Positions 55,454-60,600 of a stretch of DNA of 64,000 bases are shown here, in pieces (the first letter of the stretch is position 1; each line of letters starts with the position of its first letter). The position numbers and the translations under genes are program-made. The notes beneath the pieces were generated by a model. It searched no databases and was not told the origin of the DNA. It saw only the letters and a program-made list of their open reading frames with translations. This stretch comes from an uncultured cyanobacterium (GTDB lineage Bacteria; Cyanobacteriota; Cyanobacteriia; CAKZMO01), in contig CAVRCJ010000010.1 in assembly GCA_963719515.1 (NCBI GenBank), positions 800,001-864,000 on the forward strand, written 5' to 3'.

Positions 55454-56557
55454 TTGCCCCAATTTGTAGCCTCTTTCATGCTCACCGTTGAAGAGTTTTT
55501 GCAGCGCCCTGGCCCCATCCTCGACGTGCGTAGCCCAGCCGAGTTTGCCCAAGGCCACCTCCCTGAATCGCGATCGCTTCCCCTATTCGACGATGACGAG
55601 CGGGCCCAAGTGGGCACCTGCTATAAGCAGCAGGGGCGGGATGCGGCAGTGGAGCTGGGGCTAGAGCTGGTGGGGCCAAAGCTGGTAACCTTCGCGCGTC
55701 AGGCTAAGGCTTGGGCCAGTGAGGAGGCCAATCAGGGGGCCAATCAGGGGGCCAGCCAGGAGGGCGGCCAAGTGCGGGTCCACTGCTGGCGGGGCGGCAT
55801 GCGCAGCAGCAGCATGGCCTGGCTGCTGGAGACGTCCGGCCTGTCGGCAACGGTGCTCAAAGGGGGGTATAAAGCCTTTCGCCACTGGGTGCGCCAAACC
55901 CTCAGCATTTCAAAGCCTATTTTTAGCCTGGGCGGCATGACCGGCACCGGCAAAACCTTAGTGCTGACGGCGCTAGCGGCGCAGGGAGAGCAGGTGCTGG
56001 ATTTGGAAGGGCTGGCCCACCATCGCGGCAGCAGCTACGGCAATCTCTGCCTCCCCCCCCAGCCCACCAACGAGCAGTTTGAGAACCGAGTAGCGGCAGC
56101 CTGGCAAGGGTTCGATCCCCAGCGACCGGTGTGGATTGAGGCAGAAAGCCGCCGCATTGGCGCCTGCCGCGTGCCGGATGAGCTGTTCGCTCAGATGATG
56201 CAGGCTCCGGTGGTGCAGATTGGGCGATCGCCCGCCGAACGGATCGCGCTTTTGGCCGATGAGTATGGCGACGCCGATTCCTCAGAGCTGGTGGCCGCAA
56301 CGGAGCGTATTCGCAAGCGACTGGGGGGGCTGCGCACCCAGCAGGCGATCGACGCCATTCACGAGGGGGATTTGCAGCAGGCGATCGCCCTCGTGCTCTC
56401 CTACTATGACAAGACCTATCGCTACGATCTAGAGCAGCGATGCGCCCCTATTCAAGTTGTAGAGGTCACTGGACTGAGCGCCGAGCAGGCCGCTACCCGG
56501 CTGCGGCAGATTGTCCATCCAGACGCAGCAAGCCGTTTATGCAGCGCCAATTTCTGA
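55454..56557 (+). CDS. selU: tRNA 2-selenouridine synthase
   Basis: Rhodanese DVRSPAEF...CWRGGMRS, P-loop GMTGTGKT, HRGS, EAESRRIG. Confidence 0.94.
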   Translation: MPQFVASFMLTVEEFLQRPGPILDVRSPAEFAQGHLPESRSLPLFDDDERAQVGTCYKQQGRDAAVELGLELVGPKLVTFARQAKAWASEEANQGANQGASQEGGQVRVHCWRGGMRSSSMAWLLETSGLSATVLKGGYKAFRHWVRQTLSISKPIFSLGGMTGTGKTLVLTALAAQGEQVLDLEGLAHHRGSSYGNLCLPPQPTNEQFENRVAAAWQGFDPQRPVWIEAESRRIGACRVPDELFAQMMQAPVVQIGRSPAERIALLADEYGDADSSELVAATERIRKRLGGLRTQQAIDAIHEGDLQQAIALVLSYYDKTYRYDLEQRCAPIQVVEVTGLSAEQAATRLRQIVHPDAASRLCSANF

Positions 56558-56651
56558 TAGGGTAAGCACAGGATAATACTCTTGGGCTGCACTAGTTTGT
56601 TTATGCTGGGGAGCCCAGAACCCGTGTTTTTGGGAGGAGCCATACTAACCA

Positions 56652-56843
56652 ATGCTGACGATCTTGTTTCAACTCGCGCTGACCGCACTTATTGTGCTGT
56701 CCTTTGCCATGGTGATTGGCGTTCCGGTGGGCTATGCAACGCCCCAAAATTGGGACCAGTCAAAGCGATTGATCCTGTTGGGATCAATCGTCTGGGTGGC
56801 GCTAGTGCTCGTGGTGGGCAGCCTCAACTATCTAGTGGTGTAG
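56652..56843 (+). CDS. psbZ: Photosystem II reaction centre protein Z
   Basis: [23 protein letters not shown], two TM helices, SD GGAGG. Confidence 0.96.
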
Positions 56844-56853
56844 TCCAATTTAG

Positions 56854-57303
56854 CTAGTTCGTGAAAGCCCCCGCGCTGTATGCGCAGCATCAGCGTCGGG
56901 ATGTAAGCGAGCGAGTCGAGGTGCGCCCTTGACTGGATGCCGAAGGTGGCAATTAAGGGCAGCGCCGAGGCGAGCAAAGGGTACAATTGAACCAAGCTCA
57001 AACTATTTCATGGCGGCGGCCTGCTATCCTGACACAAACGTACAGCCCTTGGCTGGTGAACAGTGCAGACGGTAGAAAACGTAGCTGGAAATTGAATACT
57101 CGTCACTGTCTGGGGTTGGTCATTGCCTGGACATTAAACAAATCGCCTGTCGATGGGATCTAATCGGGGTTGCACGGCTTGCTGCGTAACTAGACAGGAC
57201 CAGATGAAGCAGGAAACCTTCTTGCGCGGCATCCATTAAATTGTGGTGCGTGAGCCAAGAAGCCCGCGCTCTATCTAAAAGATGAGCGTCGGGAGTATGT
57301 CGC
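56854..57303 (+). mobile_element. Non-autonomous IS200/IS605-family element A (450 bp, no transposase)
   Basis: Left hairpin CCCGCGCTG...CAGCGTCGGG 56870-56900; right GAAG-CCCGCGCTC...GAGCGTCGGG-AGTATGTCGC; TTAG immediately 5'. Confidence 0.8.
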
Positions 57304-57407
57304 GGGTACAACCGGATAAAAGTAGCGTGGCACTTGAGTCGATACAGGCTTGCTGAATGTAGCAAGCCTGCACTATCGTGAATGAGCAACACTGACAATC
57401 TGGGACT

Positions 57408-57983
57408 ATGGCTGTATTTGAAGGAACGTTCTCGCAAACCGGCTCGATGCGGTTTGCGATTGTTATCGGTCGGTTCAACGATTTGATTACAGATAAGCTA
57501 TTAGCGGCCTGTCAAGATTGTCTCAAGCGCCACGGCGTTGACCCCACACCAGAGGGCACCCAGGTAGACTACGCCTGGGTACCGGGCAGCTTCGAAATCC
57601 CAATGCTGGCCCGGCAGCTGGCTCTCACCTACCGTTACGATGCCATCATCTGCCTGGGCGCAGTGATTCGTGGCCAAACTCCCCATTTTGACTACGTCGC
57701 CGCCGAGGTCTCGAAGGGCATTGCGTCGGCCAGCGCTCAGACGGGGGTGCCGGTAGTTTTCGGCATCTTGACCACCGACACGATGCAGCAGGCCTTGGAG
57801 CGAGCGGGCATTAAAGGAAATCTAGGCTGGAGCTACGCCATGTCCGCCATGGAGATGGCGAGCCTCATGCGACAGGTCAACGGGGTAGCCCCCCAGTCAA
57901 ACGGTCGGGACCTACCGGCCGCTGCGCCTTCTGCGCCTCCTGCGCTGCGAACGGCCTCCCCAGAATCGGCACAGGATAGCTAG
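57408..57983 (+). CDS. ribH: 6,7-dimethyl-8-ribityllumazine synthase
   Basis: [34 protein letters not shown]. Confidence 0.97.
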
Positions 57984-58166
57984 CCTCGGACAGCCTGTTC
58001 AGACCGGTGCCGAACTGTTTTTGCCTGACGGCAGAGCCTGACGGTCGCGCTTTGGCAAGCGGGTTGCCCTGCTAAAATGTGTTAATGTATACAAACTAAA
58101 TGATGCCTCTGTTTTGCAGCGGCTGCCCTTAGTGGATCACAGCCAAAGCAAAGTTTATCCTCTGAG

Positions 58167-58832
58167 GTGTCCTTCATCGAACATTACCAGGTCAAGTTCG
58201 AGACGCTCTGCATTGGCGGCGTAACCTACAAAATTCGCAGCCTGCTAGACCTTCAGCAGTTTTCAGATCCAGACGGACAGGCGCTCCAGCTCGGAATATC
58301 ATCAGCCATGTGGCCGCTGTTTGGGCAGGTGTGGCCCATGAGCAAGATTCTGGCTCAGGTGATGCTTCGGGAGACGCTTGAAGAGCGGCGCGTGCTTGAA
58401 ATCGGCTGTGGCATTGGCCTTCCTAGCCTAGTCGTCAAGCAGCTTGGTGGAAATATCACCGCAAGCGACCACCATCCTCTAGCAAAAGACTTTCTGCTAA
58501 AAAATACAATTCTCAATGCCCTAACCCCCATCCAGTTCAGCGCCGGGGATTGGAACGTTGAAGACCCTACGCTGGGAAAATTTGACTTAATTATTGGCAG
58601 CGATATTCTATATGAGCGCCAGCACGCCGATTTGACGTCTCTCTTTATCGACTCCCACTGCGATCGCCACGGAAAGGTGATTGTCATTGACCCAGGTCGC
58701 GGCTCTCACCGGGCGTTCGCCAGAGCGATGGAACGGTTGGGATACAGCCATTCATGGACCGACCTGAGAGACTATCCCAGCGAAGGCGTTAAGCCCAAAG
58801 GGTTTATTCTCAAATTTTCTCACCAGGGTTAG
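58167..58832 (+). CDS. Class I SAM-dependent methyltransferase (protein lysine methyltransferase-like)
   Basis: WPLFGQVWP, VLEIGCGIG, IIGSDILYE, DPGRG. Confidence 0.85.
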   Translation: MSFIEHYQVKFETLCIGGVTYKIRSLLDLQQFSDPDGQALQLGISSAMWPLFGQVWPMSKILAQVMLRETLEERRVLEIGCGIGLPSLVVKQLGGNITASDHHPLAKDFLLKNTILNALTPIQFSAGDWNVEDPTLGKFDLIIGSDILYERQHADLTSLFIDSHCDRHGKVIVIDPGRGSHRAFARAMERLGYSHSWTDLRDYPSEGVKPKGFILKFSHQG

Positions 58833-58886
58833 GCTGACCTTTAGTGCCCCACAGTTCAAAAGCGGCGGGCGGGCTGCAAGCGTAGC

Positions 58887-59278
58887 GTGACATCCTCCCG
58901 ACGCTGACAGCAAGCTGTACAGCGCGGGCTTCCTCAGTGACTCCCAGCTATTGCCGAGACATATCCTGAGATAGGTTTATACTCCGCCTGATGCCCCACG
59001 GCAGAGTTTTGAATTTTCATCTCCGCGAGGGAGGATACGCACTATGTGTCGCAGATACATTTGCAAACTGAGGAACGGGTGACTTGCAGCTTTCGCCTAC
59101 GGGCCCGTCACACTCTTTGCGGGGTGTATCACCTTGCTATCTCTATCATACCAACTGCTAGCCTCAGCGCTGAGCGCACTATCGGCTGTGCATCATTTTG
59201 CGGGCGCACTTCGGCTAGCGCGACTCTCATCCCGACGCTCACCCTGACGGGTAGAGCGCGGGGCTTCCTGTCTAGTAG
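58887..59278 (-). mobile_element. Non-autonomous IS200/IS605-family element B (392 bp, no transposase)
   Basis: Minus strand TTAG|CTACTAGACAGG-AAGC-CCCGCGCTC...GAGCGTCGGG; right end GAAG-CCCGCGCTG...CAGCGTCGGG-AGGATGTCAC. Confidence 0.82.
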
Positions 59279-59361
59279 CTAAAATGAGAATTGCAGCTCT
59301 ATCACAAGTCATCACCGCTAGATTCTATAGGATCTACTCGGACGCGCTTTCTCCGAGGCTT

Positions 59362-60600
59362 CTATCGCTGTCGCCGGTCAAGCCGCTCCATGGCCAGCGT
59401 AGCGGTGTTGCCGTGGATGAATAGCGACAGGACGACGGTCAGCGTCACGATATTCCACAGCACATCAATGTTCTCAAAGCTGCCGTTGTTTTGAGCATAG
59501 GCTAAGTAATAGAACGAGCCAAACCCTCGAATTCCCAGAAAGGCGATCGCCCCTCGCTCTAGCTTCGATAGCTTTATCCCCACCAGAGAGAGCAGCGCCG
59601 ACAGCGGCCTTACCAGCAGCATAAACAGCGCCGCAAACAGAACGTTACGCCAGGTCAGCAGGTTTACGTCGGCGGTGGCCACCAGTCCCCCCAGAGCAAT
59701 TAACAGCAGTCCAGCAAAAATCCGCTCTAGCTGCGTAGCAAATTGGTAGGGCTTAGAGTAATAGTCGTGAAACTTCTCGATATTCTGCCGGCTAGAGGCC
59801 GCCGCCGCAAACACCGCTAAGAAGCCGTAGCCGTGCAGCGCTTCCGCCAGCCCGTAGGACAAGAAAATAGCCGAAACAACGAACAGACCCTCGCGGGTGT
59901 CCTCGCGCACCGTCTCATCGGAAACGCGAAAGGCGTAGTGGGCCAGCAGCCAGCCGACGCCAATGCCGACGCCGACGCCCATCACCACCCGGTATACCGC
60001 GTCGTAGGCCAGCCAGTTCAATAGCCAGTCCCCAAACTTACCCTCGTGCTTTGCCACCCCCAGCGCCAGATAGATAAACGGAAACGCTAGGCCATCGTTG
60101 AGTCCGGCCTCGGCGGTTAAGCCAAAGCGCACGGGGCCTTCCCCTCCTTTGTTGGGCGGCCCCACCTGAACGCTGTGGGCCATCACAGGATCCGTTGGCG
60201 CGAGGCAAGCTCCCAGTAAAATTGCATCCGCCAGCGGTAAGCCAAAGATCCAGTTTCCCAGCAATACGGCGGCGATGATGCAGAGCGGCATCGAAATGCA
60301 CAAAAGCCGCAGCGCCGACTGCCAGGTGCGGAGACGAAAGCTGCGGTCGATGGCAAGTCCTGCCCCGGCCAGTGACAAAATTACGATCAGCTCTGTCGCA
60401 TATTCCGCGACGACGCTGTGGGTCTCATTGCGAATGGGGTCAATGAGCGGCAGCTCTACCGACTGGCTAAACAGGAGCGCTGCGAGCAGGAAGTAGAGTA
60501 GCGGCACGTTGATGAAGCGAGCACCCCGCAAGCTGGGCAACCAGGTCAGCCCTAACAGCGCTAGACCAAAGGCAATATATAACGTTATTTTGGGGTCCAT
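59362..60600 (-). CDS. Cation:proton antiporter (CPA1/NhaP-like)
   Basis: LAPTDPV, EAGLNDG, GIRGFGS, many TM segments. Confidence 0.92.
   Translation of the reverse strand: MDPKITLYIAFGLALLGLTWLPSLRGARFINVPLLYFLLAALLFSQSVELPLIDPIRNETHSVVAEYATELIVILSLAGAGLAIDRSFRLRTWQSALRLLCISMPLCIIAAVLLGNWIFGLPLADAILLGACLAPTDPVMAHSVQVGPPNKGGEGPVRFGLTAEAGLNDGLAFPFIYLALGVAKHEGKFGDWLLNWLAYDAVYRVVMGVGVGIGVGWLLAHYAFRVSDETVREDTREGLFVVSAIFLSYGLAEALHGYGFLAVFAAAASSRQNIEKFHDYYSKPYQFATQLERIFAGLLLIALGGLVATADVNLLTWRNVLFAALFMLLVRPLSALLSLVGIKLSKLERGAIAFLGIRGFGSFYYLAYAQNNGSFENIDVLWNIVTLTVVLSLFIHGNTATLAMERLDRRQR

Follow-up and report, generated by a model that had tools for sequence, protein, structure and literature searches.

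The stretch of DNA considered here, referred to as the window, comprises 64,000 nucleotides (nt) of contig CAVRCJ010000010.1 (C10 in the numbering used below) from an uncultured cyanobacterium whose genome spans 5.28 Mb in 21 contigs. It contains two short elements, A and B, which are read here as non-autonomous members of one superfamily of IS200/IS605 insertion sequences (IS) that is widespread among cyanobacteria; both would have arisen through loss of tnpA and of nearly all of tnpB, with remnants of the omegaRNA region kept, and a probability of roughly 0.6 is assigned to this reading, the mechanism proposed below included. The names A, A', B, IS_A1, IS_A2, IS_B, variant 1/2 and type C/D are working labels coined for this analysis.

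Two transposase-less elements and their copies

An earlier note on this DNA had proposed the coordinates of both elements, their TTTAG/CTA starts, end hairpins, shared subterminal blocks and -10-like boxes, all of which were confirmed from the sequence and by pairwise alignment (Table 1). The first bases read TTTAG/CTAG for A on the plus strand and TTTAG/CTAC for B on the minus strand, and hairpins of the form CCCGCGCT...AGCGTCGGG are located near both ends of each element. In both, the left-end and right-end hairpins are direct repeats of each other and not inverted termini; terminal inverted repeats are absent, and imperfect palindromes lie near both ends. A and B can be aligned over ~150 nt at the start and ~45 nt at the end, an agreement well beyond what chance would give, and cannot be aligned in the middle, in line with the description of unrelated middles lacking convincing open reading frames (ORFs): Pfam returned nothing for the five small ORFs of A and B at E up to 0.1, and an Rfam scan of window positions 56000-60000 returned zero matches at E up to 1. 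The interiors are non-coding and the elements are too short for a transposase. Given their hairpins, an NTTAG target and the absence of coding capacity, the assignment to transposase-less IS200/IS605 elements holds.

The earlier note had recommended a search for further copies. Whole-genome BLAST searches recovered 18 full-length copies of A (98.3-100% identity) and 53 of B (96-100% identity), all with unrelated flanks, and the boundaries of both elements were set where the copies cease to be alike. A B-type copy that is 93% identical occupies a different site in a genome of the same genus. Scanning the genome with a regular expression for the hairpin gave 243 matches, 114 of them left-end-like and 104 right-end-like, which pair into 99 elements. 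By size, these comprise 52 B, 18 A and six A' elements (~422 nt, tnpB-less), followed by larger elements of 1483 bp (15), ~1.40 kb (four), ~1.6 kb (one) and 1.8 kb (three).

Flanks were scored for 97 of the 99 elements, leaving out one at a contig end and the A copy at C13:70120, which follows TCTAG. The motif NTTAG is found 5' of all 52 B and all 17 A copies scored, and this flank is not repeated at the other end. The five upstream nucleotides of B are TTTAG in 46 cases and CTTAG and GTTAG in three each; for A, they are TTTAG (12), GTTAG (three), ATTAG (one) and CTTAG (one). A' (6/6) and the 1.40-kb IS_A1 elements (4/4) are preceded by TTTAA. In the elements of this and of other genomes, AAGC at the hairpin foot goes with TTAG and AAGT with TTAA, a degenerate copy (L088) being the exception. 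This natural variation upholds the foot pairing rule as it had been applied to the left ends. The right-end motif TCGC, which had been accommodated under the same rule, proved to be private to the window copy of A; TCAC is present in all other scored elements, including 16 of the 17 A copies. Likewise, the extra C noticed at the left foot of A is present in the window copy and in one other, i.e. in 2/18 copies (2/17 in the copy alignment). Since TCGC and the extra C sit at positions important for TnpA cleavage, the window copy of A may be immobile.

A search of the genome with the joined flanks of the 97 elements identified two true uninterrupted paralogous sites, both belonging to tnpB-bearing relatives, and four further matches that are partial overlaps. 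Comparison with these sites places a 1483-bp IS_B after TTTAG and a 1.40-kb IS_A1 after TTTAA, in each case exactly and with no duplication, and the ends so defined match those of B (IS_B) and A' (IS_A1). In three genomes of the same genus (G002, G003 and G004), the psbZ-ribH spacer, the location of A in the window, is 60-170 nt long and without such an element. A 26-nt left-flank pattern had no match in the metagenome contigs searched. The comparison of element orientation with local GC skew (19/18 vs 30/30; Fisher p = 1) is uninformative, the genome having only a very weak skew.

As a side observation, two B copies (G000:C16:8494-8891 and G000:C6:428062-428458) sit ~200-600 bp from IS200-type tnpA genes of other families that have no CCCGCGCT hairpin of their own, which suggests insertion beside or into other insertion sequences.

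Resident tnpA and tnpB elements

In profile searches of the genome, the Y1 transposase family was matched 14 times and the TnpB zinc-ribbon domain 81 times. A Y1 tnpA gene (PF01797, 139.5 bits) lies between CCCGCGCT hairpins only in the three 1.8-kb IS_B elements, each of which also encodes a TnpB of 398 amino acids (aa) with helix-turn-helix, RuvC-type and zinc-ribbon Pfam domains. None of nine other tnpA loci examined is inside a hairpin-bounded element; three have hairpins of neighbours within 2.5 kb. The 1483-bp IS_B elements, of which the genome holds at least 15, carry the same 398-aa TnpB alone, with no tnpA. A search for tnpA and tnpB with the ends of A and B, likewise recommended in the earlier note, was thus successful for both genes. 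For B, an apparently intact cognate TnpB is present, namely that of IS_B, judged by its three Pfam domains and its occurrence in at least 15 elements.

IS_A1 (1.40 kb) and IS_A2 (1.42-1.47 kb) encode TnpB proteins of a second lineage that are 37% identical to the IS_B TnpB, and it is to the 3' ends of these two tnpB lineages that the two cargo types are traced. Identity to IS_B is 95-96% over the first 73 nt of B, which match the left ends, and 85-88.5% over its last 85 nt, which match the right ends; the first ~70 nt of A are 91-96% identical to IS_A2 left ends. The tnpB frame stops 46 nt short of the right end in IS_B and 17 nt short of it in IS_A1, so that any 3' remnant once coded for protein and also lies where the guide RNA is encoded.

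Four IS_A2 copies (G000:C10:892638-894041, C3:360.8-362.2k, C15:88.3-89.7k and C7:5.7-7.2k) have ~24 nt inserted within the right-end hairpin, which should break the hairpin recognized by TnpA; two of the four retain open tnpB frames of 449-456 aa.

Origin and structure of the cargo

The last ~200 nt of A have the ordered motifs AAAnnGCCUGUGGA, CGGGG, CUAG and GAAGCAGGAA in common with the 3' ends of IS_A1 and IS_A2. Among 301 genomes of the class, the A cargo is present in 21, and a protein search with IS_A1 TnpB found matches in 90. In G111, G260 and G189, which belong to several genera, the cargo is carried by tnpB-less elements of 410-510 nt with left and right hairpins of their own; the A-type elements of other genera differ by 22-30% and keep the helices through double changes. 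Within G111, the A-type element and a tnpB 3' end share 88% identity over 60 nt.

For structure prediction, 15 tnpB-linked 3' ends were assembled, 13 from orthologues of IS_A1 TnpB together with the resident IS_A1 and IS_A2. RNAalifold, applied to this set alone, yields a long-range helix (CCUGU/GCAGG) around two inner helices, with the right-end hairpin coming next; 17 of 34 pairs contain double changes, and the right-end hairpin itself covaries. The same helices emerge from an alignment of 11 tnpB-less elements with two resident tnpB 3' ends. In these 13 A-type sequences, with the right-end hairpin excluded, the share of paired cells is 92.6%, compared with 83.0 +/- 1.1% for shuffles and 34-50% for slid controls, and the number of pairs changed on both sides (12) was equalled in 1/500 shuffles. 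Related sequences can outscore shuffles without any structure, and the agreement with the independent tnpB-linked set appears to be the stronger argument. By homology and covariation, the A cargo is a remnant of the 3' end of tnpB, the region that encodes the omegaRNA.

The structure set for B consists of nine sequences, three from tnpB-less elements and six from IS_B-like right ends (a tnpB frame is seen upstream in three). Three common helices occupy the last ~120 nt, with double changes in 8/32 pairs; the 3' part of the B cargo is a remnant of the 3' end of an IS_B-lineage tnpB. The 5' half aligns with B-type elements of a same-genus genome and of G260. The suggestion that A and B carry different RNA cargo is therefore sustained in the sense of two non-coding cargos that stem from the omegaRNA-encoding 3' ends of two TnpB lineages. 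Structural conservation, whose absence had been named beforehand as unfavourable, is seen as helices with covariation in A (12 double-changed pairs) as well as in B (8/32).

Some diverged relatives deserve mention. Two tnpB-less elements of ~430 nt (L086, G000:C4:101945-102377; L087, G000:C1:7100-7530) have the same hairpins and an A-type core with a different stem ahead of the right hairpin, which makes them another cargo type; at L087, the flank breaks the TTAA/TTAG rule. In a B-type element of G260 (L024, contig C3, ~1210-1320), the left hairpin is disrupted by short tandem duplications of a hairpin arm, and the -10-like box and cargo are retained despite this.

A shared promoter-like block

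After the left hairpin, A and B have a block in common that ends in a -10-like box, with GGTACAAT at 56980-56987 (+) in A aligned opposite TGGTATGAT in B. This block is absent from all tnpB-bearing relatives and is therefore regarded as gained, not left over. At the same position, B-type elements of three other genomes have TATACT, TATAAT and TACAAT, and A-type elements of other genomes have TGGTATGCT, TGCTAGAAT, TGGTAGAAT, TGTAAGAT and TATAAT. Forms such as TGnTAnnnT or TAnnnT have thus been kept in place while the surrounding sequence diverged, a persistence that suggests a promoter of the extended -10 type. Two loci with other ends, C7:179.7k and C4:98.0k, also have the block, with an A-like scaffold coming after it. 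These loci (L090, G000:C7:179640-180110; L091, G000:C4:97930-98351) are ~430 nt long, non-coding, ~80% alike and without the CCCGCGCT hairpin; their scaffold reads GCCCUGUGAAGG...GAAACAGGAA, and the 49 nt at their right end resemble sequence beside three other tnpB genes.

Proposed mechanism and alternative explanations

In the proposed mechanism, TnpA of the three 1.8-kb IS_B copies would mobilize A and B, like the other families with these hairpins, as single strands, and the hairpin foot would choose the target, with AAGC directing insertion to TTAG and AAGT doing likewise for the TTAA families. We infer from the near-identical copies at unrelated sites that A and B can be excised and transposed by TnpA. 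The proposed internal extended -10 promoter would drive an RNA of ~240-310 nt that runs past the right end, with the flank serving as guide; the cassettes would use a promoter of their own because the tnpB mRNA, the normal source of omegaRNA, is gone. In the case of B, the resident IS_B TnpB would load this RNA in trans and cut the emptied, TTTAG-flanked donor site, and repair from the sister copy would then restore the element. This guide-cassette mechanism is plausible for B. For A in this genome it is possible and less likely, and we regard it as doubtful. Overall, the interpretation of the earlier note is borne out in large part, with transcription and loading by TnpB in trans as its putative steps.

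Several observations weigh against this reading. Exact empty sites for the window copies, which had been predicted at specific junctions, were not found, the two duplication-free paralogous sites being those of IS_B and IS_A1: the psbZ-ribH spacers of G002, G003 and G004 are too diverged (genes 78-84%) to show the junction of A, and none was found for B in relatives, where the genes flanking B sit on different contigs and leave no orthologous site. A simple sigma-70 scan, which needs a -35 box, found nothing at the two boxes proposed; the A box is without the TG of an extended -10, and the sole sigma-70-like site inside B is antisense (58956-58983 on the plus strand; GAGACA, 16-nt spacer, TATACT, 9/12). 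A further point is the scaffold variant of A. The inner helices of tnpB-linked scaffolds come in two compensating variants, and the variant of A and A' is found at 26 genomic places (18 A, six A' and two further elements of ~430 nt), none of them tnpB-linked, whereas all 19 places with the other variant are in elements of the tnpB lineage, 18 of which adjoin a zinc-ribbon match. All A copies read C within CCUGUCGA at 57151, where 15/15 tnpB-linked sequences have G, a base kept also in other tnpB-less relatives including A'. In addition, the nearly invariant A of GAAGCAGGAA (alignment column 362, ~57214) has three alleles among 17 copies (A in eight, C in six, T in three). Concerning B, a profile of the 5' half (nhmmer) matched only loci with B-type elements and nothing tnpB-linked among the loci compared. 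The A-type structure test used a structure drawn from the same alignment, which favours that structure. Finally, copies that are ~99% identical leave little time for selection within the genome, and covariation cannot tell an RNA from single-stranded DNA, since it is the same strand that is transposed.

A more specific version of the guide-cassette reading, which we hold tentatively and at somewhat less than even odds, sees the elements as guide-only hyperparasites: tnpB-less elements that have acquired a promoter module and make use of TnpA to move and of resident TnpB to be retained by homing. It would include exchange of the promoter module among at least three element families with differing ends and scaffolds (A, B and the type-D loci), and it would explain the excess of B (53 copies) over the parents that bear tnpB (at least 15).

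The elements may instead be plain internal-deletion derivatives riding on TnpA, in which the 3' remnant of tnpB was kept by chance and conservation across genera reflects recent horizontal spread. The copies are ~99% alike, which points to a recent burst, and A is altered at an otherwise invariant base and has three alleles at one site of a conserved motif, in a scaffold variant that no resident tnpB shares. This explanation is nevertheless considered unlikely, though it deserves to be taken seriously, as A-type elements of other genera that differ by 22-30% retain the helices by double changes, the -10-like box persists in otherwise diverged sequence, and the promoter block, found in no tnpB-bearing parent, must have been gained.

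An improbable explanation is that the helices serve TnpA recognition or the transposition intermediate made of single-stranded DNA, and do not act as RNA. Elements of the IS200/IS605 family move as single strands and are recognized via DNA hairpins (Meers et al., 2023; PMC10055086), the strand that bears the helices is the transposed one, and the right-end hairpin covaries. However, many internal pairs are G-U (127/214, 128/213 and 147/171), which would be weak as G-T in DNA, and the internal helices sit within the tnpB frames of full elements, the place known to encode the omegaRNA. Interior structure also seems unneeded for movement, because mobilization appears to occur in terminal-only palindrome-associated transposable elements (PATEs) that are 52 bp long (PMC3119063).

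If the guide-cassette reading is correct and the RNAs are made and loaded, A and B would represent a compact natural case of a modular OMEGA system (short for obligate mobile element-guided activity) in which dozens of guide cassettes compete for few nuclease genes. With two scaffold types under one promoter module, they would help to explore the extent to which TnpB accepts foreign scaffolds, and they would provide a source of short, self-promoted omegaRNA cassettes with a TTTAG transposon-adjacent motif (TAM). If the RNAs are not made, the elements are ordinary deletion derivatives.

Features and genomic context of the window copies

The features of both elements are compiled in Table 1. Three neighbouring ORFs were named by reading their translations and not from a database: a psbZ-like ORF of 63 aa with its stop at 56843, a ribH-like one (57408-57983) and a methyltransferase-like one (58167-58832). 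Element A starts 10 nt past the psbZ-like stop and ends 104 nt 5' of the ribH-like start in the same orientation, so that a read-out transcript from A, if any, would run into the ribH-like ORF. The right end of B lies 54 nt beyond the convergent methyltransferase-like ORF, and B reads antisense into the 3' end of that ORF. This arrangement lends some appeal to the view that the main effect is on neighbours, with an outward promoter driving or silencing flanking genes (A towards ribH, B antisense to the methyltransferase-like ORF), a view we consider highly improbable, because the flanks of the 71 copies are unrelated, which makes a common regulatory role unlikely, and because such an effect would be a by-product and not the reason for the structure. 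For annotation, it is relevant that ~77 copies of ~0.4 kb each occur in a 5.3-Mb genome and adjoin genes such as psbZ and ribH.

Table 1. Positions of elements A and B and of their parts in the window.
Feature	Position	Strand	Basis or remark
Target motif TTTAG of A	56849..56853	+	directly 5' of A; TnpA target, would-be TAM for a TnpB
Element A, 450-nt non-autonomous IS200/IS605 element (PATE-type MITE, short for miniature inverted-repeat transposable element)	56854..57303	+	copies with unrelated flanks
A left end: foot AAGC (56865-56868), extra C (56869), left-end hairpin (56870-56900)	56865..56900	+	
Block common to A and B, ending in -10-like TACAAT (56982-56987)	56908..56987	+	pairwise alignment
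A cargo, non-coding omegaRNA-like scaffold	56988..57262	+	homology to tnpB 3' ends, covariation
A scaffold core CCUGUCGA...GAAGCAGGAA	57146-57215	+	G-to-C change at 57151
A right end: foot GAAG (57259-57262), right-end hairpin (57263-57293), end AGTATGTCGC	57259..57303	+	
A right cleavage motif TCGC	57300-57303	+	
Flank, would-be guide for A RNA	57304..57323	+	by analogy with the known TnpB omegaRNA layout (PMC10055086)
Flank, would-be guide for B RNA	58867..58886	-	by analogy with the known TnpB omegaRNA layout (PMC10055086)
Element B, 392-nt non-autonomous IS200/IS605 element (PATE-type MITE)	58887..59278	-	copies with unrelated flanks
B 3' scaffold, ~125 nt, with 87-88% identity to IS_B right ends and three helices in common with tnpB-linked IS_B and its relatives, including right-end hairpin (58897-58928), foot GAAG, end AGGATGTCAC	58887..59011	-	
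B cargo 5' half, non-coding	59012..59144	-	matched by B-type elements only
B extended -10-like box TGGTATGAT	59153-59145	-	alignment with A
B left end: start CTACTAGAC, foot AAGC, left-end hairpin (59262-59231)	59231..59278	-	
Target motif TTTAG of B	59283-59279	-	directly 5' of B

Comparison with known systems

In IS608-type elements, a short DNA guide at the hairpin foot picks the cleavage site; the mechanism of IS608 TnpA is reportedly set out in papers by Barabas and Guynet. The target motifs are TTAC for IS608 and TTGAT for ISDra2. Subterminal hairpins, insertion without duplication 3' of a tetra- or pentanucleotide and a DNA guide at the hairpin foot are common to these two elements and to A and B, whereas the hairpins and targets are unrelated in sequence. 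The natural switch between AAGC/TTAG and AAGT/TTAA fits the DNA-guide rule of the IS608 type.

Stand-alone omegaRNA loci were reportedly described by Altae-Tran and colleagues in 2021. The omegaRNA of TnpB, also termed reRNA, extends from a scaffold at the 3' end of tnpB to the right end of the element and takes the flank as guide (Karvelis et al., 2021; PMC8612924), the layout proposed for A and B as well. In full elements, processing of the tnpB mRNA gives rise to it (Nety et al., 2023; PMC10278001). A and B differ in that a separate promoter is needed, because no tnpB lies upstream.

The PATEs of the archaeon Haloquadratum walsbyi (Dyall-Smith et al., 2011; PMC3119063) are likewise without terminal inverted repeats, have palindromes near their ends, cause no target duplication and are too short for a transposase. 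In the passages used for the comparison, every defining feature tested is also present in A and B, and 'homogeneous' families of >90% identity exist there, too. Many of the H. walsbyi elements are terminal-only and 52 bp long, whereas A and B keep a structured interior of 240-310 nt and a promoter-like box, and a role as RNA had not been considered at the time of that work. The features of classical MITEs, terminal inverted repeats and flanking direct repeats, are both absent from A and B. Nezha, a MITE of Anabaena/Nostoc, was considered as an IS200/IS605-type relative and rejected, since the part of its description consulted gives it terminal inverted repeats and direct repeats, and A and B have neither. 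Full-text literature searches yielded no paper with a title or abstract on elements of this kind in cyanobacteria, which does not prove that there is no such paper.

The closest counterparts are PATE-like elements of Geobacillus stearothermophilus (PMC10055086), which, like A and B, have no protein genes and share their ends with resident tnpB/tnpA elements. PATEs often encode omegaRNAs on which TnpB must act in trans (Meers et al., 2023; PMC10055086), and the idea of guide-encoding elements without tnpB is therefore already published. Compared with these elements, as they are presented in passages of the main text, A and B belong to another phylum, have other hairpins and another target (TTAG/TTTAG), unite two cargos from two TnpB lineages under one added promoter-like block and reach copy numbers (18 and 53, respectively) above those of their tnpB-bearing parents. 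Only two points are less expected: the promoter block that A and B share and have apparently acquired, and the fact that the A scaffold does not match the resident TnpB proteins.

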